Positions 7,438 through 49,342 of a DNA stretch of 64,000 nucleotides are shown here, piece after piece. Under the pieces are notes generated by a model that searched no databases, had not been told where the DNA came from, and saw only the letters and a list, made by a program, of their open reading frames with translations. A program made the translations under genes and the position numbers. This DNA is from an uncultured Acidobacteriaceae bacterium (GTDB lineage Bacteria; Acidobacteriota; Terriglobia; Terriglobales; Acidobacteriaceae): positions 5,759-69,758 of the forward strand of contig CAVRNL010000015.1 in NCBI GenBank assembly GCA_963722485.1, written 5' to 3'. Every line of letters starts with the position of its first letter. Positions within the stretch are counted from its first letter, which is position 1.

Positions 7438-9165
7438 ATGAATTTCAAAAAAGCGATCTCCCTAATCATCCTCCTCTCGCTGGTTGCCATCTTTGGCCAA
7501 AAACCGCTGCACGCCCAAAAGCCGCTTGCCGTGTCCGACGATCTCCTGCTCGCGACCATGGAGAAGGAACTGCATCGCGGCCAGTCCGAGCTCGCCAAAC
7601 AGGATCCCGCGCCCTACTTCACGAGCTACAACGTCACCGACGGTGAGTCGCTGGTCATTCTCAGCGCCCAGGGTGGCATCTTGACGTCCACTCATATCCG
7701 TCACCGTGCCGCCGACGTCAGCATGCGCATCGGTACCCCGGCTCTCGACAACACGCACGACCAGGAGCGCTACTCCGGCATTTCTTCCGGCCAGCTTCCG
7801 CAGCGGGACGACCCCGACGCCATCGCCCGCGTCCTTTGGCGCCTGACTTACGAGCAGTACCGCAAGGCCCGCCAAGCCTACACCAACGTAAAGACCAAGA
7901 CCGCCGTCCGCGCCAAGGACGAGGACGACTCGCCCGACTTCTCCCAGGAGAAGCCCTCGACCTACCTTGAAATTGAGAAAACTCCGTCGCCCGCGTTTCC
8001 CGAGCAAAAGGCTTGGGAGGAACTGGCCCGCCGCTATTCCGCTTCCTTCCGCCAGTATCCGCAGGTCGAAGAGTCCATGGTTTTTCTTTTTGCCGAGAGG
8101 GAGCACAGTTACCTGGTCTCGACCGAAGGCACGAAGATCGTCACCGCCGACGCCATCTTCCGCGTCATGATCCAGGCGGAAACCCGCGCCGACGACGGCA
8201 TGCAACTGATGCGCGTCGAAACTTTCCAGTTTTCCCACCCGTCAAAAGTCCCCTCCGAAGCGGAAGTGGCGGCGAGCGTGAAAAAGATGGCCACCGACTT
8301 GAGCGCGTTGCGCGCCGCTCCGCTCGCCGAGCCTTATAGCGGTCCAGCGTTGCTCTCTGGCCGGGCCGCCGCCGTTTTCTTTCACGAAGTGCTCGGCCAT
8401 CGCGTCGAAGGACAACGCCAGCGCGGCCGCGACGAAGGCCAGACTTTTACCAAGAAGGTGAACGAAAAAATTATGCCCGAGTTCCTCAGCGTCACCGACG
8501 ATCCCACGCTGCGCACTCTCGACGGCACGGAGTTGTCGGGCTTTTATCGCTTCGACGACGAAGGCATTCCCGCCGCCCGCGTCGAGGTGGTCAAGGATGG
8601 CATCCTGAAGAATTTTCTGATGGGACGATTGCCGGTGAAGAATTTCAGCAACTCGAATGGGCACGGCCGCGCGCAGTCTGGAATGATGCCGGTTGGCCGC
8701 CAGGGCAATCTGATCGTGACTTCTTCGAAAACGATTCCCGACGCTCAACTGCGCACCCGTTTCATCGAAGAAATCAAGAAGCAGGGGAAGCCCTACGGTC
8801 TCTATTTCGAAGACATCCAGGGCGGATTCACTCTGACCACGCGCGATCTGCCGCAAGCGTTTCAGGTGTTGCCCGTCATGGTGTGGCGCGTTTACGCAGA
8901 TGGGCGTCCCGATGAACTTGTCCGCGGCGTGGATATCGTCGGCACTCCGCTCACCGTCTTGACCGAGATCGCCGCCACCGGAGACACCACCAGCGTCTTC
9001 AACGGCATTTGCGGAGCCGAATCCGGCAGCGTTCCTGTATCCGCAGCCGCTCCAGCCATGTTGTTCTCGGAGATGGAAGTGCAGAAACGAAAGTACGGCG
9101 ACGCGCGGCCACCGATTCTTCCGCCTCCGCCCGGCGCAACCGAGGAGAAGGGAGGCAAGCAATGA
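7438..9165 (+). CDS. tldD: exported TldD-family metallopeptidase
   Basis: Signal peptide MNFKKAISLIILLSLVAIFGQKPLHAQ. HExxxH motif in FFHEVLGHRVEG. TldD/PmbA-type C-terminal region (GICGAESGSVPVS). Confidence 0.8.
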   Translation: MNFKKAISLIILLSLVAIFGQKPLHAQKPLAVSDDLLLATMEKELHRGQSELAKQDPAPYFTSYNVTDGESLVILSAQGGILTSTHIRHRAADVSMRIGTPALDNTHDQERYSGISSGQLPQRDDPDAIARVLWRLTYEQYRKARQAYTNVKTKTAVRAKDEDDSPDFSQEKPSTYLEIEKTPSPAFPEQKAWEELARRYSASFRQYPQVEESMVFLFAEREHSYLVSTEGTKIVTADAIFRVMIQAETRADDGMQLMRVETFQFSHPSKVPSEAEVAASVKKMATDLSALRAAPLAEPYSGPALLSGRAAAVFFHEVLGHRVEGQRQRGRDEGQTFTKKVNEKIMPEFLSVTDDPTLRTLDGTELSGFYRFDDEGIPAARVEVVKDGILKNFLMGRLPVKNFSNSNGHGRAQSGMMPVGRQGNLIVTSSKTIPDAQLRTRFIEEIKKQGKPYGLYFEDIQGGFTLTTRDLPQAFQVLPVMVWRVYADGRPDELVRGVDIVGTPLTVLTEIAATGDTTSVFNGICGAESGSVPVSAAAPAMLFSEMEVQKRKYGDARPPILPPPPGATEEKGGKQ

Positions 9166-21633: not shown

Positions 21634-22188
21634 TCACGCTGCTGGTGCTCGAAACGATATCTTTCCCCATCCTTCATTGACCCGCACTGGCGCAAGTTCG
21701 TCGAGAAGATAGAAACGATAACTACTCCAGCGCCAATCCTCAGGCGCCTCCGTGAGACCTCGCTTCACCGGATTACGGTGCATATACCGAAGTTTCTCCA
21801 CTCTCTTCTTCTCCGTCCAAACGTTGAAGTCATGGAAACGTGTCTGCCAGAAGGGTGCGCGGGTAGGATCATCCGCAAATAGCCTGCTCTGGCGCGGGTC
21901 GCATGCTTTTTTCTTCGGCAACAAGGCATGGGCCGTGCGCTGTTTCAATACTTGCATCACTGTCGAAGGAGTCCCGACCTCCGGTTCGCTCAGCAGCAAG
22001 TGGATATGTTCCGGCATCACGACATACCCCACCACTACGAAGCGGAAGCGTTTGCGGGTTTGTTCTAACACGGAGAGCAGACGGTCGCGGCTACGAGCGG
22101 AATGCAAAAGTGGCAGGCGGCGATAACAAGAGCACGTGATAAAGTGCAAGTGGTCGGCGCCGTAGAAGCGATGCAGACCGCGAGGCAT
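21634..22188 (-). CDS. REP-associated tyrosine transposase (RAYT, IS200/IS605 Y1 family-like)
   Basis: HUH motif in MPEHIHLL and catalytic Tyr region LRYMHRNPVKRGL. A REP hairpin lies about 30 nt upstream. Confidence 0.85.
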   Translation of the reverse strand: MPRGLHRFYGADHLHFITCSCYRRLPLLHSARSRDRLLSVLEQTRKRFRFVVVGYVVMPEHIHLLLSEPEVGTPSTVMQVLKQRTAHALLPKKKACDPRQSRLFADDPTRAPFWQTRFHDFNVWTEKKRVEKLRYMHRNPVKRGLTEAPEDWRWSSYRFYLLDELAPVRVNEGWGKISFRAPAA

Positions 22189-22218
22189 GACAGAGTTATG
22201 CTATCAGCAGCATCGCGG

Positions 22219-22251
22219 CCCACCCTTGCAAAAAACGCAAGGATGGGGCAC
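22219..22251 (-). repeat. REP, GTGCCCCA-head family, copy next to RAYT
   Basis: The minus strand reads GTGCCCCATCCTTGC-GTTTTTT-GCAAGGGTGGG. Confidence 0.8.
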
Positions 22252-27827: not shown

Positions 27828-27916
27828 GTCGTTGGTCGTTCGTCGCTGGTCGTTCGCTGGGCTGAATCATTCGGGAATTCGATTTGGCCAACGACTAACG
27901 ACGAACGACCAGCGAC
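27828..27916. repeat. hairpin with tandem-heptamer arms, GTCGTTS family
   Basis: GTCGTTGGTCGTTCGTCGCTGGTCGTTCG pairs with CGACTAACGACGAACGACCAGCGAC (about 25 of 28). It starts 7 nt after the nadC stop. Confidence 0.8.
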
Positions 27917-27959
27917 TGTTTATAATCCCTCCATCTCTACTTCCACCAAAACTCGCAGC

Positions 27960-28973
27960 TTGCCGTCCGTGCACAAAGCGACAGACGCTCGTTTGGGCCG
28001 CATCGTCCGCCTGCTCATGGACCACGCCACCGTCGTCGTCAGCGGCACCAAGATTGCCGAAGAGATCGGCACCAGCCGGTCGGAAGTCTGGCGGCTGATT
28101 CAGCAACTGCGCGGCCTGGGCGTGGATGTTGCCGGACATCCGGCGACCGGCTATCAGCTGCGCGCGGTCCCAGACTTGCTGCTGCCGGAAATGTTAGCGC
28201 CGCTGTTGAGGGGCACGATCTTCGGCGATGCCAAGCAGATCCATCACTATTACAAGATCGGCTCGACCAATTCGGAGGCCATGCAATCCGCGGCGGAAGG
28301 CGCGCCCGAGGGCAGCGTGTTTCTTGCCGAAGAACAACTGGCTGGGCGCGGACGCGGCGCGCACGGCTGGCATTCGGCGCGGTCGACGGGAGTTTACTGT
28401 TCGGTGATCCTGCGTCCAGCGATGCCGCCGTCGGATGCGCTGATTTTTTCGTTGGCTGCGGGGCTCGCGGTGCGCGCGGCGGTGGTGGAGATTGCGCCGC
28501 AGCTTTTGGTGGACCTGAAATGGCCGAACGACCTGCTGCTTGGCGGCAAGAAGTTCTGCGGCATTCTCACGGAGATGAATGCCGAGGTAACGCGAGTGCG
28601 CCACCTGGTTGTGGGCGCGGGCATCAATGTGAACCAGGTCAAGTTTCCGGCTGAGCTGCGCGAGATTGCGACGTCGTTGCGCATCGAAACAGGCACGGAG
28701 TGGTCGCGCGTGGAGCTCTGCGCCGCTTTGCTAAAATCGCTCGACCGCGAGTATCGAAGTTTGGTGGAGGATGCGGGAGCGCGAGATGCAATCCTTCGCC
28801 GGTTCGAGGAGAATTCTTCGTCGGTGCGCGGCAGAAAAGTTTCCATCGGCGATGATGGCAACTTGGCCGGTGTTACCGAAGGGTTGGATGAGCGTGGATT
28901 TTTGCGCATAAGGACCGCGGAAGGGTTGCGAACGGTGGTGAGTGGAACGGTGAGGACTATTGAGAATTTGTAA
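27960..28973 (+). CDS. birA: bifunctional biotin--protein ligase / biotin operon repressor
   Basis: N-terminal HTH region, GRGRGAHGWHS, and KWPNDLLLGGKKFCGIL. Confidence 0.9.
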   Translation: MPSVHKATDARLGRIVRLLMDHATVVVSGTKIAEEIGTSRSEVWRLIQQLRGLGVDVAGHPATGYQLRAVPDLLLPEMLAPLLRGTIFGDAKQIHHYYKIGSTNSEAMQSAAEGAPEGSVFLAEEQLAGRGRGAHGWHSARSTGVYCSVILRPAMPPSDALIFSLAAGLAVRAAVVEIAPQLLVDLKWPNDLLLGGKKFCGILTEMNAEVTRVRHLVVGAGINVNQVKFPAELREIATSLRIETGTEWSRVELCAALLKSLDREYRSLVEDAGARDAILRRFEENSSSVRGRKVSIGDDGNLAGVTEGLDERGFLRIRTAEGLRTVVSGTVRTIENL

Positions 28974-29050
28974 TTGGCAATTGGTAATTTGTAATTGGAA
29001 AGGCCGCTGCGCCTAGATCACAAATCACCAATTACAAATTACCAATTACA
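28967..29050. repeat. hairpin with tandem-heptamer arms, TAATTGG family, copy 1
   Basis: TTTGTAATTGGCAATTGGTAATTTGTAATTGG pairs with CCAATTACAAATTACCAATTACA. It fills the birA-coaX gap and contains the birA stop codon. Confidence 0.85.
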
Positions 29051-29997: not shown

Positions 29998-30708
29998 GTG
30001 GAAAATTACTTCAACTACTTCACGGAAATCGAAGAGCACTATCTGCGGCGACGAGGCACTCATCTGCTGCTGTCAACTCTGGATTGGGCCCTCATTGAGA
30101 CCTGGAAAAGCGCGGGCGTGCCGCTGGAGGCCGTGCTCCGCGGGATCGATGATGCGTTCGACAAGTACGATCAGCGTCCCTCGAAATCGAAGAAGGTGAA
30201 TAGCCTGGCGTACTGTTCGCAGGCCGTACTGGCTGCGGCCGAAGATATGAAGGAAGCGGCGGTGGGTGCGGCCAGCGAAGAAAAAACTCAACGCGATCCC
30301 GGATTCGAAGCGGCGCAGATTGCAGCGTTTCTGCGAGAAAATGCCGGCAAGCTCGAGAAAGCGAAGCCGCCCGAGCGCGCGGGATTCGCGACCGCAGCGC
30401 TGGCACGGGAAGAAGCGGCCTCGCTGCGTGAGATGGCCGAGGCCATCGAGAGCAGCGGGAAGCTGCCGCGCCTGGAAGATTTGGAGCGGCGACTGACCGT
30501 GCTGGAGGAAAAGCTGTTCGCGGTGCTGATGGCCGCCACCCCGGATGAAGATCTGGTGAATGTTCGCGCGGAAGCCGATCGGGATCTTGCTCCCTACCGC
30601 CGCAAAATGACGGCAGCGCAAGTTGAACCGCTGCACAAGCAGTACATACATAAGCGGCTGCTGGAGCGCTGTGGAGTACCGCGGCTGAGCTTGTTCTATA
30701 TGCACTGA
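29998..30708 (+). CDS. conserved-looking hypothetical protein
   Basis: 236-aa ORF, helical (FTEIEEHYLRRRGTHLLLSTLDWALIETWK). No family recognised. Confidence 0.55.
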   Translation: MENYFNYFTEIEEHYLRRRGTHLLLSTLDWALIETWKSAGVPLEAVLRGIDDAFDKYDQRPSKSKKVNSLAYCSQAVLAAAEDMKEAAVGAASEEKTQRDPGFEAAQIAAFLRENAGKLEKAKPPERAGFATAALAREEAASLREMAEAIESSGKLPRLEDLERRLTVLEEKLFAVLMAATPDEDLVNVRAEADRDLAPYRRKMTAAQVEPLHKQYIHKRLLERCGVPRLSLFYMH

Positions 30709-30744
30709 TGTGGTGTTTCGGATGTTAGGAACATAAATTGGCGC

Positions 30745-30827
30745 TGTCATCCTGAGCGAAGCGAAGGACCTATGCATTCCAGCGCCGCGAGCAAATGCAT
30801 AGGTCTTTCGCTTCGCTCAAGATGACA
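30745..30827. repeat. long palindrome, TGTCATCCTGAGCGAAGCGAAGGACC family, copy 1
   Basis: 34-nt arms with 3 mismatches and a 15-nt loop. Confidence 0.85.
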
Positions 30828-30888: not shown

Positions 30889-32283
30889 TTGCTGCTTTCC
30901 ATAGAAAAACTGATCTACGGCGGTGACGGCCTAGCCCGCACGCCAGCCGGCGCGGACGGACGCAGCATGGCGGTGTTTGTGCCGTTTGTGCTGCCGGGTG
31001 AAAAAGTCGAGGCCGAGATACGGCAAGAGAAGCCTGGCTTCGCGCGCGGCTCGGTCACGCAGCTGACCGAAGCGTCGTCCGATCGCATCGAAGCACGCTG
31101 CCCGTACTTCCGCCAATGCGGCGGATGCCATTACCAGCACATCCCTTACGACCGGCAAATCGATTTCAAGGCCGCGATTCTGCGCGAGACGTTGCAGCGG
31201 ATCGCGAAGATCGAGCTGCAATTCGACCTTCGCCTGCATGTCTCTCCTCCCTGGCACTACCGCAATCGCACGCGCCTGCAGGTGCGAACTGCACCGGAGT
31301 TTCCACCCCAGCCTGCGAAAAGCGCACGGTCTGGGGACCCCGGATTTCCACCCCAGCCCGCGAAAAGCGCGCGGTCTGGGGACCCCGGGTTTGCGCTGGG
31401 ATACTTCCGCGTTGGCTCGCACGAATTTCTGCCGGTGCGCGAGTGTCCCATCAGCTCGCCGCTGCTCAATCGCGTGATGGCGCGTCTGCTTGAGCTCGGC
31501 GGATTGAATTGCCCGTCGGCAGTGGAAGAGATTGAACTGTTCGTGGACGCCGCCGATGAGCGTTTGCTCGCCTGGGCATTCTGCGAGCGCGAGGCTGACA
31601 GGAGAGATCTGCTGCGCTGGGCGGAGGCGCTTGGGCGCGAGTTGCCGGAAATCAGCGGCATGACGTTTTTCTCTTCTCGGCGAAGAACAGAAGACGATGA
31701 CGCGCCCATGGACTCGAAAACCATCGCGCAATCCGGCATGAAGGCACTTCGCTATCGCACGAAGCACGCGGAGTTCCAAGTCAGCGCGGGAGCCTTTTTC
31801 CAGGTGAACCGTCATCTGATCGACGACCTGGTTTCGGTCGTGACCGGCAATGCCAGCGGCGAAGTCGCACTCGACTTGTACGCGGGGGTGGGATTGTTTT
31901 CGGCCACGCTGGCGCAAAACTTTCATCACATATTTGGTGTAGAGGCGTCACAGACATCGTATGGCGACTTCGTGCAGAATGTCCCTGCGAACGTGAAAGC
32001 GGCCGGGGCGCGAACCGAGGATTACCTGAGAAACCGGCCGGTGCGAAAAAGGCCTGACCTGGTCGTCCTGGACCCTCCCCGCACCGGGGCCGGCAAGGCG
32101 GTTATTCGCTCTCTGGTGGAACTCGGAGCGCCCCGTGTCCGATATGTTTCGTGCGATCCGGCGACGCTGGCCAGGGATGTCGCCCCCCTGCTGGCGGCTG
32201 GATACCACATCGAGGAAGCACACTTATTCGATCTCTTTCCGGAGACGTTCCACATCGAATCGGTGATGCTGCTGGCGCGCTGA
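30889..32283 (+). CDS. rlmD: 23S rRNA (uracil-5)-methyltransferase RlmD/RumA-like
   Basis: TRAM-like N-terminus, Fe-S cysteines CPYFRQCGGCHYQH, SAM-binding region LDLYAGVGLF, and catalytic region VSCDPATLARD. Confidence 0.85.
   Translation: MLLSIEKLIYGGDGLARTPAGADGRSMAVFVPFVLPGEKVEAEIRQEKPGFARGSVTQLTEASSDRIEARCPYFRQCGGCHYQHIPYDRQIDFKAAILRETLQRIAKIELQFDLRLHVSPPWHYRNRTRLQVRTAPEFPPQPAKSARSGDPGFPPQPAKSARSGDPGFALGYFRVGSHEFLPVRECPISSPLLNRVMARLLELGGLNCPSAVEEIELFVDAADERLLAWAFCEREADRRDLLRWAEALGRELPEISGMTFFSSRRRTEDDDAPMDSKTIAQSGMKALRYRTKHAEFQVSAGAFFQVNRHLIDDLVSVVTGNASGEVALDLYAGVGLFSATLAQNFHHIFGVEASQTSYGDFVQNVPANVKAAGARTEDYLRNRPVRKRPDLVVLDPPRTGAGKAVIRSLVELGAPRVRYVSCDPATLARDVAPLLAAGYHIEEAHLFDLFPETFHIESVMLLAR
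31300..31389 (+). repeat. two tandem 45-bp REP-like units, in-frame in rlmD-like gene
   Basis: TTTCCACCCCAGCCTGCGAAAAGCGCACGGTCTGGGGACCCCGGA occurs twice with 3 differences. Each unit is an imperfect palindrome (CCCCAG...CTGGGG) and encodes FPPQPAKSARSGDPG. Confidence 0.85.
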
Positions 32284-33041: not shown

Positions 33042-35741
33042 ATGATGCGCACCCTCAAGCCGCCACGGCAGCCGTTGTTCTGGGCCGCCTTGGTATTTTC
33101 GCTCGGTCTGTGGACGGGCGTCCGCGCCTGGCGTCCACCGTCGTGGTGGGTGATCGCCTTAGTCGTCTTCACTTTTGCGGCATCATGGTTTCTTCCCAAA
33201 CGAGCCTGGCTGGCCAAGGCGCTCGCTTTGGGCGCGTGGTTTCTTCTAGGCGCTTTTCTGATTCAGGTTCGCGGTCAGCCGCCGCACGCACTGCAGGATG
33301 ACGCTCGAATTCTCACCCTCGCCGATGGCCGTGAAGTAACTCTTACAGCGCATGTGATGCGTGAGGGCTACTCGCGGTCCGCAGGGCCGCGCTCGATTCG
33401 TGAATCGATTGATGTGGAGACCGAAGAGATCGCGAGCCAAGGTGAAAGCTGGCCGGTGCGAGCCGGAGTGCGGCTGACGATTTACAAGACGGTGGAGGAT
33501 CGGGCCATCGGGTCATCGGAAAATCGGGTGATCGGGCCATCGGGCCATCGGGTGATCGAAGGTCAAGGGCATTTGGATCTCAATGACCCGATCACCCGAT
33601 CACCCGATCACCCGATCCCTCTGACCTACGGCACGCGCCTTCAGATTCTCGCCAAGTTGCACCCCGCGCGCAATTACCGCAATCCCGGAGCCTTCGATTA
33701 TGAAGGCTATCTCCGCGACAACGGCATCAGCGTGCTCGGCTCGGCCGAGGCAACGGACATTTCGCGACTTCCCGGATTTTCCGGCAGCCGCATTCAACTC
33801 TGGCGGACGCGCGTTCATGCCAGCATCGTGGCCAAGATTCACCAATTATGGCCCGCGTCGCAGGCCTCGCTCATGGACGCCATGGTGCTCGGCGAAGAAT
33901 CGTTCCTGCGCAATGCGACCCGCACCGAGTACCAGCGCTCGGGCACGTATCACGTGCTGGTAGTTTCCGGGATGAACTTGAGCATCCTGGCGTTCGCCAT
34001 TTTTTGGACGCTGCGCCAGTTTCGCGTCGATCCCGCGCTGGCCGCCCTCACCACGGTCGTGGTCTCGTTCGCATACGCATTCGTAGTCGGCGTCGGCCCG
34101 CCGGTATGGCGCGCCGCGTTGATGCTGGCAACATACCTAGGCGCGCGTCTGCTCTATCGCGAACGCAACATGATGAACGCCATTGGAGCCGCCGCGCTGG
34201 GAGTTCTGATCGTCGATCCGCATGCCCTGTTTGGCGCCAGTTTTCAGCTCACGTTTCTCGCTGTCTTCATCATCGCCGGCATCGGCTCTCCCATTCTCGA
34301 ACGGACAACGCTGCCCTACGCGCGCGGTCTGCGCCTGTTGCAAGCTGCCAGCTACGATTTGCACTTAGCTCCCAAGGTGGCGCAGTTCCGGCTCGACCTG
34401 CGGTTGATCGCAGGGCGGCTGAAAAGATTCGTCGGCGACCGCCTCAGCCTGGCGCTGCCCGCGATCTTCATGCGGGCAGCCATCGGCGTGGGCGAATTGA
34501 TCTTCATCTCGGCGCTGATGCAGGCGGGACTGGCGCTGCTCATGGCGTATCACTTTCATCGCGCCACCACCATGGGAATGCCGGCCAACATGGCGGTGAT
34601 TCCGCTCACCCAGGTGCTGATGCCCGCTGCCGCCGCCGCCGTCGGCTTGGGATACATCTCGACAGTTCTGGCCAAACCCGCGGTTTGGATCTCCGGCTTC
34701 GCGCTCGAAGGGATTGCGGGAACGGTGCACTGGCTCGGCGGCGCCCAACTCGCTGGAGCATCGATTGCCGATCTGCGCGTAGCCATGCCCACGCTCACGA
34801 TGATTCTGGCTTCGATTGCCGCCCTGGCGCTCGCCATGCTGGCGGCGCAAATCCGTCGCGCGCGCTGGGCCGCGTTCGCTTCCGTGGCGTTGTTGTTCGC
34901 CGTTGCCGGATGGATCGCGTTTTTCCCGTCGCGCCCTCACCTTCACGCCGGCGTGATGGAGATGACCACCATCGACGTCGGACAAGGCGATTCCATTCTT
35001 CTGGTCACGCCCGAGGGCCGCGCCATCCTCATCGATGCCGGAGGCATTCCCCAGTGGATGCATTCCGATTTCGATCTCGGCGAACAGGTGGTCTCTTCGT
35101 ATCTTTGGAATCGCGGCATCGATCGTCTCGACGTGGTCGCCATCACCCATCCTCATGCCGACCACCTCGGTGGAATGCCCGCGGTGATTGCAAATTTCCA
35201 CCCGCGAGAACTCTGGATCAGCATCGACAAACCGGCGGGCGAACTGGCGCCCATCGTTGCCCAAGCCCAGCGCGCGGGAATGAATGTGTCGGTAAAACAA
35301 GAAGGCGATCAATTCGATTACGGCGGAGCGCATTTCCAGATGCTCGCTCCCGGACGCGACCAAATTACCGGCTCGATGCGCCCGAACGACGATTGCCTTG
35401 TGTTTACGGCCAAGTTCGGCGGCACCACCGCTTTACTAGAGGGAGACGCGGAGCGTCCAGCCGAACGGCGCGTCGTCGAAGAGCATCCCGAGGCGATGCT
35501 GCTGAAGGTGGCCCATCACGGCAGCGCCAGTGGAACCTCTGCCGATCTGCTAGCGACTGTTCATCCGCGCTACGCTGTTATTTCCGTTGGTGCGCGAAAT
35601 GTGTATGGACATCCCCGGCGCGAGGTCCTGGAACGGCTGCAGCAAGCTGGCGTGAAAACCTACCGCACCGACGAGGAGGGCGCTATCAGTTTTTACCTCG
35701 ACGGCAAGTCCGTGACTCCGGACGTGGCGCTTCTCCACTGA
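33042..35741 (+). CDS. comEC: DNA internalization competence protein ComEC/Rec2
   Basis: Multi-TM competence domain (SGTYHVLVVSGMNL) and a C-terminal metallo-beta-lactamase domain (ITHPHADHLGG, VAHHGS). Confidence 0.9.
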   Translation: MMRTLKPPRQPLFWAALVFSLGLWTGVRAWRPPSWWVIALVVFTFAASWFLPKRAWLAKALALGAWFLLGAFLIQVRGQPPHALQDDARILTLADGREVTLTAHVMREGYSRSAGPRSIRESIDVETEEIASQGESWPVRAGVRLTIYKTVEDRAIGSSENRVIGPSGHRVIEGQGHLDLNDPITRSPDHPIPLTYGTRLQILAKLHPARNYRNPGAFDYEGYLRDNGISVLGSAEATDISRLPGFSGSRIQLWRTRVHASIVAKIHQLWPASQASLMDAMVLGEESFLRNATRTEYQRSGTYHVLVVSGMNLSILAFAIFWTLRQFRVDPALAALTTVVVSFAYAFVVGVGPPVWRAALMLATYLGARLLYRERNMMNAIGAAALGVLIVDPHALFGASFQLTFLAVFIIAGIGSPILERTTLPYARGLRLLQAASYDLHLAPKVAQFRLDLRLIAGRLKRFVGDRLSLALPAIFMRAAIGVGELIFISALMQAGLALLMAYHFHRATTMGMPANMAVIPLTQVLMPAAAAAVGLGYISTVLAKPAVWISGFALEGIAGTVHWLGGAQLAGASIADLRVAMPTLTMILASIAALALAMLAAQIRRARWAAFASVALLFAVAGWIAFFPSRPHLHAGVMEMTTIDVGQGDSILLVTPEGRAILIDAGGIPQWMHSDFDLGEQVVSSYLWNRGIDRLDVVAITHPHADHLGGMPAVIANFHPRELWISIDKPAGELAPIVAQAQRAGMNVSVKQEGDQFDYGGAHFQMLAPGRDQITGSMRPNDDCLVFTAKFGGTTALLEGDAERPAERRVVEEHPEAMLLKVAHHGSASGTSADLLATVHPRYAVISVGARNVYGHPRREVLERLQQAGVKTYRTDEEGAISFYLDGKSVTPDVALLH
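33497..33618. repeat. hairpin with tandem-octamer arms (ATCGGGNN units), in-frame inside comEC
   Basis: The left arm has 7 units of ATCGGGNN. The right arm is GACCCGATCACCCGATCACCCGATCACCCGATCC. The outer GGATCGGG/CCCGATCC pair closes a 122-nt element. Confidence 0.8.
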
Positions 35742-35848
35742 AATAAGGCCAGGTTTCAAAGTTTCAAGGTTTCAATGTTTCAGCGTCGCTTTCTGATGTT
35801 CAGACATTGAAACTCTGAAACTTTGAAACTTTGAAACCTGGCCTTATT
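35742..35848. repeat. hairpin with tandem-octamer arms, GTTTCAAN family
   Basis: AATAAGGCCAGGTTTCAAAGTTTCAA pairs perfectly (26 bp) with its complement, and the pairing continues imperfectly. It spans exactly from the comEC stop to the stop of the convergent gene. Confidence 0.85.
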
Positions 35849-36595: not shown

Positions 36596-36636
36596 GTGCC
36601 CCATCCTAACGTCGTGCCTTTCGACGTTAGGGTGGG
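36596..36636 (+). repeat. REP, GTGCCCCA-head family
   Basis: GTGCCCCATCCTAACGTCG-TGCCTTT-CGACGTTAGGGTGGG. It shares GTGCCCCATCCT with the RAYT-adjacent copy and lies between convergent genes. Confidence 0.8.
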
Positions 36637-47136: not shown

Positions 47137-47166
47137 GTTCCTCCCTCCGCCATGACGGCGTGGAAT

Positions 47167-47255
47167 CTGTAATTGGCAATTTGTAATTGGTAATCTCGAT
47201 CCCGCGACCGACGGATTTTCAATCACAAATCGCAAATTACAAATCATAAATTCAC
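47167..47255. repeat. hairpin with tandem-heptamer arms, TAATTGG family, copy 2 (degenerate)
   Basis: CTGTAATTGGCAATTTGTAATTGG pairs with TCAATCACAAATCGCAAATTACAA (about 19 of 24). It abuts the stop of the dsbA-like gene. Confidence 0.75.
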
Positions 47256-49221: not shown

Positions 49222-49235
49222 TATCCACGAAAAAA

Positions 49236-49314
49236 GTTCTCGGTTCTCAGTTCTCGGTTCTCAGTGAAAGGCGACGCGATTTTCTCTGAGAACTGAGAAC
49301 CGGGAATTGAGAAC
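49236..49314. repeat. hairpin with tandem-heptamer arms, GTTCTCR family
   Basis: GTTCTCGGTTCTCAGTTCTCGGTTCTCAG pairs with CTGAGAACTGAGAACCGGGAATTGAGAAC. It lies between the lptD stop and the larE start. Confidence 0.8.
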
Positions 49315-49342
49315 TCATTGGATGCCTACGCCGCAGCGCCGG

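Follow-up and report, generated by a model that had tools for sequence, protein, structure and literature searches.

Tandem in-frame copies of a dispersed REP-like palindrome in the rRNA methyltransferase gene rlmD of an uncultured Acidobacteriaceae bacterium

In the present work, we examine a tandem pair of 45-nt palindromic units that is translated within rlmD, a 23S rRNA methyltransferase gene, in a 64,000-nucleotide stretch of DNA from an uncultured Acidobacteriaceae bacterium (GenBank assembly GCA_963722485.1, contig CAVRNL010000015.1, positions 5,759 to 69,758 of the forward strand; the whole stretch is called the window below). We compare the site with its counterpart in 81 orthologs, and the units with related sequences elsewhere in the same genome and in other genomes of the order. 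The repeat is an insertion and not a native linker of the protein. We will argue, with a probability of roughly 85%, that it arose by a tolerated, probably neutral, in-frame insertion of a dispersed palindrome resembling repetitive extragenic palindromic (REP) sequences, combined with tandem amplification in rlmD. The element has in common with REPs that it is a short imperfect palindrome with many dispersed copies, mainly intergenic.

The locus comprises the following features, where R1 is a covariance model described below:

30889 to 32283, plus strand: host gene for a 464-residue RlmD/RumA-type 23S rRNA (uracil-C5)-methyltransferase with TRAM, central 4Fe-4S and S-adenosylmethionine (SAM) methyltransferase domains; the open reading frame (ORF) is intact.
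31294 to 31302, plus strand: left copy of the bounding direct repeat, CCGGAGTTT, defined from aligned empty and filled sites.
31300 to 31344, plus strand: unit 1, codons 138-152, encoding FPPQPAKSARSGDPG; 42-nt core at 31302-31343, hairpin at 31306-31336; R1 score 65.4 bits, E 3e-14.
31340 to 31347, plus strand: middle copy of the bounding direct repeat, CCGGATTT.
31345 to 31389, plus strand: unit 2, codons 153-167, encoding the same peptide; 42-nt core at 31347-31388, hairpin at 31351-31381; R1 score 69.9 bits, E 2e-15.
31385 to 31392, plus strand: right copy of the bounding direct repeat, CCGGGTTT, after which the RlmD sequence resumes as GCGCTGGGATAC (ALGY).

Tandem Repeats Finder reports a single array at 31294-31392 with a period of 45, 2.2 copies, 92% matches and a score of 168, the highest in the whole window. 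Three substitutions separate one unit from the other (31314 T/C, 31326 A/G and 31344 A/G), all of them at third codon positions (Pro, Ala and Gly) and synonymous. An earlier reading made from the sequence only had described two 45-bp units with three differences that encode one peptide twice, preserve the frame by spanning 15 codons each, and read as an imperfect palindrome on the minus strand; coordinates, translation and the repeat scan agree with it on all these points. Within the window, the 31-nt palindromic core is found at two places only, one in each unit, and none of 100 shuffles matched this. On the sense RNA strand, the unit hairpins have folding energies of −19.9 and −21.5 kcal/mol (z = −2.1 and −1.7), with similar values on the opposite strand. 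For a single unit sequence this is only moderately better than shuffles, and the strong support for the hairpin comes instead from stem covariation across the family, as will be discussed below.

The most direct evidence for an insertion comes from the orthologs. We extracted 81 RlmD orthologs belonging to the same uncultured Acidobacteriaceae genus and aligned the site. All genomes used are metagenome-assembled genomes (MAGs); the relatives are labelled uncultured Acidobacteriaceae, Terriglobales or Terriglobia, and they stem from several independent metagenome projects, with isolate names that indicate peat, bog and permafrost (SPRUCE, palsa, bog). In 60 orthologs the site is empty, with ..RLQVRTAPE directly followed by FALGYF.. 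(DNA gcgCCGGAGTTTgcgctgggg), and in the other 21 it is filled. One 45-nt unit is present in 14 orthologs, two units in five (the window's genome, L046, L048, L049 and L065; here and below, G, C and L numbers are our handles for genomes, contigs and loci) and three units in one (L047, from G007). In L063 there is a 24-nt remnant (FTPQPAPG) from which the loop and the 3′ arm have been deleted, and in L118 the 45 nt are kept with a decayed hairpin. The alignment of orthologs proposed by the sequence-only reading thus reveals presence and absence at one and the same codon. The repeat is not confined to one assembly, since the insert stands at this site in some 20 other MAGs of different projects (Microflora Danica, SPRUCE, Stordalen and others), including assemblies of 3-5 contigs; and a conserved native linker without intergenic relatives, the other finding that would have spoken against that reading, is not what the orthologs and the genome display.

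The borders of the insert have the same form throughout, in that CCGGRTTT bounds every unit, and the empty site has one copy of this repeat (CCGGAGTTT). Two main unit types can be distinguished, type A (PPQPAKSARSGDPG, inner stem CCGCG/CGCGG) and type B (PPQTGKTGRSGDPG, inner stem CGGC/GCCG), and an intermediate type B′ also exists. The order of the types differs from allele to allele (B-A, A-A, A-A-B′ and B-B), which points to repeated unequal exchange or conversion. In a protein tree, L063 with its remnant groups as sister (SH-aLRT 94) to a set of four empty orthologs. Three of these read GGATTT (..GF) at the site and not GAGTTT (..EF). Judging from the aligned sites, GGATTT is the scar that would be expected if a deletion between the bounding repeats had kept the right-hand copy.

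The units have many relatives outside rlmD. A BLAST search with the 97-nt array against the window's own genome returned related intergenic sequences, and R1, which was built from nine copies that are mainly non-rlmD, finds 11 copies there; the intergenic relatives that the sequence-only reading suggested looking for are therefore present. Four close relatives with the rlmD insert have 30, 39, 26 and 21 copies, and G021, in which the rlmD site is empty, gives one weak match. R1 matches were obtained in at least 118 of the 141 genomes of the genus (0 to at least 37 copies per genome, with at least about 10-40 in most of the genus) and in at least 19 of the 39 genera of the order. The family consensus consists of a 42-nt core, namely TCCACCCCA, a variable 6-bp stem, an AAAA(C/G)CG (AAAASCG) loop, the complementary stem and (C)TGGGGACCCCGG, to which a 3-nt spacer is added. 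A 20-nt match at C23:50775 (GCCTGCGAAAAGCGCCCGGT) is a short partial match inside another gene and was treated as chance, and the possibility that the dispersed copies are rlmD pseudogene fragments is ruled out by their flanks.

Among 46 aligned copies, 96% of the stem cells are paired, a share that drops to 54% or less once the 3′ partner is slid. Double changes are seen in 26 cells, compared to 5.6 in shuffles, with none of 500 shuffles reaching as high; this alignment was fitted to the R1 model, which favours pairing. The RlmD units can be aligned free of gaps, and for them alone the corresponding numbers are 88% and at most 59%. The inner stem hence varies among copies and co-varies, and an alternative folding register for it is supported in type-A units only. 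None of the 46 copies has the GTAG or CGTC tag, the consensus ends being TCCACCCC and GGGGACCCCGG (minus strand CCGGGGTCCCCA). An Rfam cmscan of four loci with the element, at E ≤ 1, yielded no match on the element itself and only sub-threshold miRNA-like matches to other hairpins. The element also differs from a miniature inverted-repeat transposable element (70-300 bp, with terminal inverted repeats of 15-30 bp and a target-site duplication), as the unit has 45 nt and its inverted repeat is the hairpin itself.

Regarding the genomic context, the copies on C75, C73 and C99 of the window's own genome are intergenic, and so are most copies in G017. Copies in the own genome are located between resB-like and ccsA-like genes, upstream of efp, and between recG and the gene for a small membrane protein. 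Paired copies are direct repeats with a 45-nt period, in rlmD as well as in intergenic DNA. Many of the copies whose loci were examined lie inside two other repeat families and are nested there at fixed points, in a hairpin with the insertion point GCAGCGCTGAAGC^GCTGCGCCACCC and in a CCTTCGC^TTCGCTCAGGATGAC element; the nested piece is presumably 45 nt in both, as counted against an uninserted consensus. The stem subtype follows the host repeat, with CACGCC in 5 of 6 copies in the first context and CGCGCC in 8 of 14 in the second, and many copies may therefore spread passively together with their host repeat. A spurious-looking ORF at 30073-30777 on the minus strand, starting with MHRSFASLRMT.., results from translation of the CCTTCGCTTCGCTCAGGATGAC repeat family, which is the other common host in which copies are nested.

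There is also a case that is suggestive of movement. At L203 (G017:C2:1058431-1058479), an intergenic copy has 28/28 core identity to the RlmD type-A unit, and the corresponding site in the window's genome (G000:C58:~8485-8503) is empty. This is an insertion polymorphism between close species, and it constitutes evidence for at least occasional recent copying.

We now turn to the protein. The host protein scores 228 bits against TIGR00479 (rumA; cutoff 183.55), matches the Pfam families TRAM and tRNA_U5-meth_tr, and has E. coli RumA (1uwv/2bh2) as its closest PDB structure, with an E value of 1.6e-38; a Foldseek search with the model of the host protein retrieves RlmCD/RumA at E 1e-28. The 1uwv alignment covers the motifs CPxF..CGGC, ECPI, VSC(D/N)PATLARD and H(I/L)ES. 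Invariant in 52 orthologs are C71, C77, C80, C186, DPPR 395-398, C422 and E457, of which C422 and E457 align with the RumA motifs VSCNPATLARD and HLES. Judged by these residues, the host gene looks functional.

In the alignment to RumA, the 30 inserted residues stand in place of residues 141-144. The insertion site is a beta-turn of 4-5 residues. It joins two strands within the central Fe-S domain and falls after the third (C80) and before the fourth (C186) cluster cysteine. The sequence-only reading had assigned the insert to the linker between the Fe-S/TRAM part and the methyltransferase domain, which has to be corrected, as both the RumA alignment and the structural models locate it in this turn inside the Fe-S domain. 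In the AlphaFold2 model of the host protein (52 orthologs, mean pLDDT 70), residues 136-166 have a pLDDT of about 30 and form a coil between strands 124-134 and 168-173. In that of the insert-less ortholog L055, a five-residue turn connects strands 124-133 and 139-143, with a local pLDDT of 87; both models are of medium quality overall. The comparison of structures with and without the insert, which had been suggested at the outset, thus gives a disordered loop in the former case and a tight turn in the latter. The insert is accordingly modelled as a surface loop that would leave the domain fold intact, as in the in-frame insertions of the Rickettsia palindromic element (RPE) type. The beta-turn of RlmD is a general hot spot for insertions. 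Orthologs L112 (LQSSSQSSSESSPEFI) and L020 (AFSVHPEDGQSGGSKKPE) have unrelated inserts at the same beta-turn, a Ser-rich 14-mer in L112 and an 18-mer in G010.

In-frame copies are found in other genes as well. In the PMT_2 glycosyltransferase of G007 and G023 (L141 and L144), the element is read as HPNGPKPGPSGTPAF, exactly 15 residues (45 nt) that are missing from the window's own ortholog. UvrC of G008 (L142, G008:C1:830976) has 41 extra residues, made up of the element on the opposite strand and a second, SLRMT-type repeat. In the window's own genome, NuoC (Complex1_30kDa) has an in-frame copy, PQPQPAKTGPSGGPEG, in its Pro/Ala-rich N-terminal extension (C22:1632-1680, minus strand), which is kept in G017 (L194), and a GAF-TonB_C protein of G017 has one in a linker. 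The in-frame copies make use of three reading frames or orientations, and the element is open in five or six of the six frames. Two further copies of G017 were rejected as in-frame cases, L188 since it lies upstream of the ruvA start, and L203 since it appears upstream of the start of the neighbouring gene. Long ORFs that span copies in G017, including the shorter spanning frames at L193 and L200, were left out of the in-frame cases.

On the basis of these results, the following course of events can be proposed. A member of the family would have inserted into the rlmD gene of an ancestor within the uncultured Acidobacteriaceae genus, at the tip of the beta-hairpin in the central Fe-S domain. 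The gene would have stayed open because the unit has 45 nt, i.e. 15 codons, and is nearly free of stop codons, and the 15 extra residues would have formed a disordered surface loop that the enzyme tolerates. Tandem duplication would then have raised the copy number to two in the window's genome and to as many as three in others, the most likely route being slippage or unequal exchange involving the bounding CCGGRTTT repeats. In other lineages the unit would have been shortened or lost. We infer that the element is selfish or neutral in rlmD and that its amplification and loss took the slippage route. As to how the element would move, the leading candidate is a Y1/RAYT-type single-strand transposase (RAYT, REP-associated tyrosine transposase) acting in trans.

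The window's genome has three Y1_Tnp (PF01797) genes, one of them in the window itself:

21634 to 22188, minus strand (21634 to 22251 with its REP): Y1/RAYT-type transposase of 184 residues (PF01797, 44.5 bits).

A REP, GGGTGCCCCATCCTTGC..GCAAGGGTGGG (GGGTGCCCCATCCTTGCgttttttGCAAGGGTGGG), lies about 30 nt upstream of this gene, and REPs with the same head occur at 36596, 57891 and 25608. The head of this REP resembles the minus-strand head of the element (GGGTGCCCCA vs GGGGTCCCCA). The sequence-only reading had likened the element to GTGCCCCA-head REPs, and with respect to the architecture this comparison holds. Membership of that family does not follow, as the element stands apart as a family whose conserved flanks and loop are its own, without the GTAG/CGTC tag, with direct pairs and with no copy next to any of the 17 RAYT loci considered below. 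A second RAYT-like gene, at G000:C40:95323-95637 (L157), has GGGTGGCGCAGCGCTTCAGCGCCGC hairpins on both sides, which belong to the GCAGCGCTGAAGC^GCTGCGCCACCC repeat, the one that hosts many nested 45-nt copies in its loop. Where hairpin repeats were seen in the flanks of RAYT genes, they are other REPs. No transposase could be linked to the family, and mobilisation in trans by a RAYT is put forward as a hypothesis.

A number of observations weigh against the proposed course of events. When 17 PF01797 RAYT loci from six genomes were searched with R1 with the filters off, no adjacent copy was found, only one weak match (24.9 bits) about 1 kb away, and G017, with its approximately 30 copies, has a single RAYT that is flanked by a different REP. 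Most of the copies in the window's own genome appear at orthologous positions in G017, with the flanks judged by eye, and most of the family would therefore be old and vertically inherited, current mobility being weakly supported. The repeats at the junctions are only 3-4 nt long (RTT or RTTT in rlmD, TTCC in PMT_2), the junctions in rlmD, in PMT_2 and at the nested copies taken together follow no single rule, and target-site duplication and microhomology cannot be told apart at these junctions. In a quick maximum-likelihood protein tree with the insert columns removed, parsimony requires 11 state changes, and strongly supported branches force only 2 of them; this single-gene tree is thus poorly resolved and does not discriminate between repeated gains and a single old gain followed by many losses. 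Finally, the loop or a hairpin in the mRNA could still have a function, considering that the hairpin is kept in nearly all RlmD units. In line with this, all three differences between the units of the window are synonymous, and two of them (31314 T and 31326 A) form a T-A pair in one RNAfold register.

A more far-reaching possibility is that the family represents a new type of mobile element. The stop-poor 45-nt unit would then live in genes and in the loops of other REPs, its hairpin would be actively maintained even when translated, by selection or by intrastrand correction, and it would spread without a cognate RAYT, either by an undescribed mechanism or by hitch-hiking in other repeats. 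We consider this unlikely. If it were true, the series of 0-3 units in RlmD would be a natural record of insertion, amplification and excision.

Another scenario is exaptation, in which the loop, or a hairpin in the rlmD mRNA or DNA, has gained a function that is kept by selection. A basic, flexible, RNA-contacting loop near the Fe-S cluster, a translational pause site and an RNase or processing site are conceivable candidates. The persistence of the insert in 21 of the 81 species is compatible with this scenario, as is its length, which is a multiple of 3 even in the remnant and the decayed copy. The 88% pairing of the RlmD unit stems points in the same direction, together with GC/CG swaps at two inner pairs between types A and B. 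That difference may, however, stem from different source copies and not from compensatory evolution in place, considering that the type-A unit has a twin elsewhere in G017. Moreover, the insert is missing from most orthologs, even from close ones that share 80-85% identity, and outside the insert site these proteins are conserved to the same degree. The copy number ranges from 0 to 3, the peptide differs between unit types (PAKSAR vs TGKTGR), the hairpin is destroyed in L118 in spite of the retained 45 nt, half of the unit is deleted in L063, and the loop is modelled as disordered. Exaptation is for these reasons judged to be quite improbable.

It is also highly improbable that the repeat is a native variable linker, generated by in-place duplication of rlmD sequence through slippage on CCGGAGTTT, with a chance or GC-rich likeness to the intergenic palindromes. 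The turn is indeed prone to insertions, as the unrelated inserts in two other orthologs illustrate, and short direct repeats are present at the unit borders. Yet the units reach E values of ~1e-14 to 1e-15 against a model derived for the most part from copies outside rlmD, and they have the 5′ TCCACCCC, the AAAASCG loop and the 3′ GGGGACCCCGG in common with intergenic copies whose stems are different. Furthermore, an unrelated gene displays a clean 45-nt gain of the same element, and the empty site contains no sequence that could give the palindrome. A mis-assembled tandem pair, which one could suspect in a short-read metagenome bin, as the source genome is a fragmented MAG of 127 contigs and 89.65% completeness, can be practically dismissed, since 1-3 units stand at the same codon in the roughly 20 other MAGs mentioned above, and since the three differences between the units are at odds with a collapsed or duplicated read artefact.

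It is instructive to compare the insertion and amplification in rlmD with known systems. RPEs are ~100-150 bp long and belong to the reduced genomes of an obligate intracellular alphaproteobacterium. They reportedly occur within genes, as Ogata et al. in 2000 and Claverie and Ogata in 2003 are said to have described. The present element resembles them in that dispersed palindromes are found in frame in conserved housekeeping genes for which insert-free orthologs exist, in that the insert positions are surface-exposed with the fold intact, and in that copies lie both within and between genes. Unlike RPEs, it has 45 nt and is found in free-living soil and peat Acidobacteriaceae with 5-Mb genomes; it also forms tandem arrays of 1-3 units and nests inside other repeat families. 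Given the difference in length, homology to RPEs would not be expected.

The RPE precedent is cited by Di Nocera et al. 2013 (PMC3733652), who describe, for several species, REPs that lie wholly inside an ORF. Dimers or groups that encode 20-30 amino acids make up more than half of these ORF-internal REPs, and many of them sit in genes for DNA repair (uvrA, recB, dnaE2) or in RNA-related genes (PMC3733652). The same paper reports REPs nested inside other palindromes, and a GTAG or CGTC tetranucleotide at one REP end, the GTAG REPs being linked to RAYT genes; Acidobacteriota are mentioned there for transposases flanked by terminal inverted repeats only. The dimer of 30 residues in an rRNA methyltransferase, the copy in the UvrC of a relative and the nesting in two repeats are all in agreement with this picture, whereas the absence of the GTAG/CGTC tag and of a RAYT link is not. 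The REPIN/RAYT systems (Bertels and Rainey 2011, PMC3116915; Ton-Hoang et al. 2012; Corneloup et al. 2021, PMC8266576) likewise resemble the element in having a short hairpin whose single-stranded flanks are conserved, in reaching tens of copies per genome and in their long vertical persistence. The genomes with the element also encode RAYTs that are flanked by REPs of their own, among them the one at 21634-22188 in the window. It is unlike REPINs, which are inverted REP pairs, in that its pairs are direct with a 45-nt period and no RAYT is flanked by it.

It is important to point out that in-frame insertion of palindromes is already known. New here are the element family, which is tag-less, comes as a 45-nt direct-tandem unit and has no link to a RAYT, and also the phylum and the rich allelic series at a single site. 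The known range of in-gene 'selfish DNA', namely Rickettsia and a small number of REP families from proteobacteria and verrucomicrobia, is thereby extended to free-living Acidobacteriota, a dominant phylum of soils that has been little studied. The RlmD site offers an unusually complete series at one codon, consisting of empty sites, one, two and three units, a half-deleted remnant, a deletion scar and a decayed copy, and it can be used for studying the entry, expansion and exit of palindromes in proteins, as well as the loop tolerance of an Fe-S RNA methyltransferase. For annotation, the family explains the recurrent peptides ..PPQPAKSARSGDPG.., ..HHAKTGRAGDPG.. and ..ACWGPR.. in acidobacterial proteins, and also spurious ORFs. 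The length heterogeneity of the genes that bear the element is repeat-driven.

The window also contains other palindromes. At 27828-27917, 28959-29050, 35751-35837, 47164-47251 and 49235-49315, arrays of 7-8-nt direct repeats are followed by the inverted array some 20 nt further on. These form long intergenic hairpins, e.g. between birA and coaX, and in Rfam two of them only gave sub-threshold miRNA-like matches. A second translated palindrome, unrelated to the element, is present at 33497-33618, about 1.1 kb downstream of rlmD and about 2.1 kb from the rlmD insert. It is a hairpin of tandem octamers (ATCGGGNN seven times, then ACCCGATC four times), and it lies in frame in the ComEC ORF at 33042..35741, where it is read as ..ENRVIGPSGHRVIEGQGHLDLNDPITRSPDHPI...

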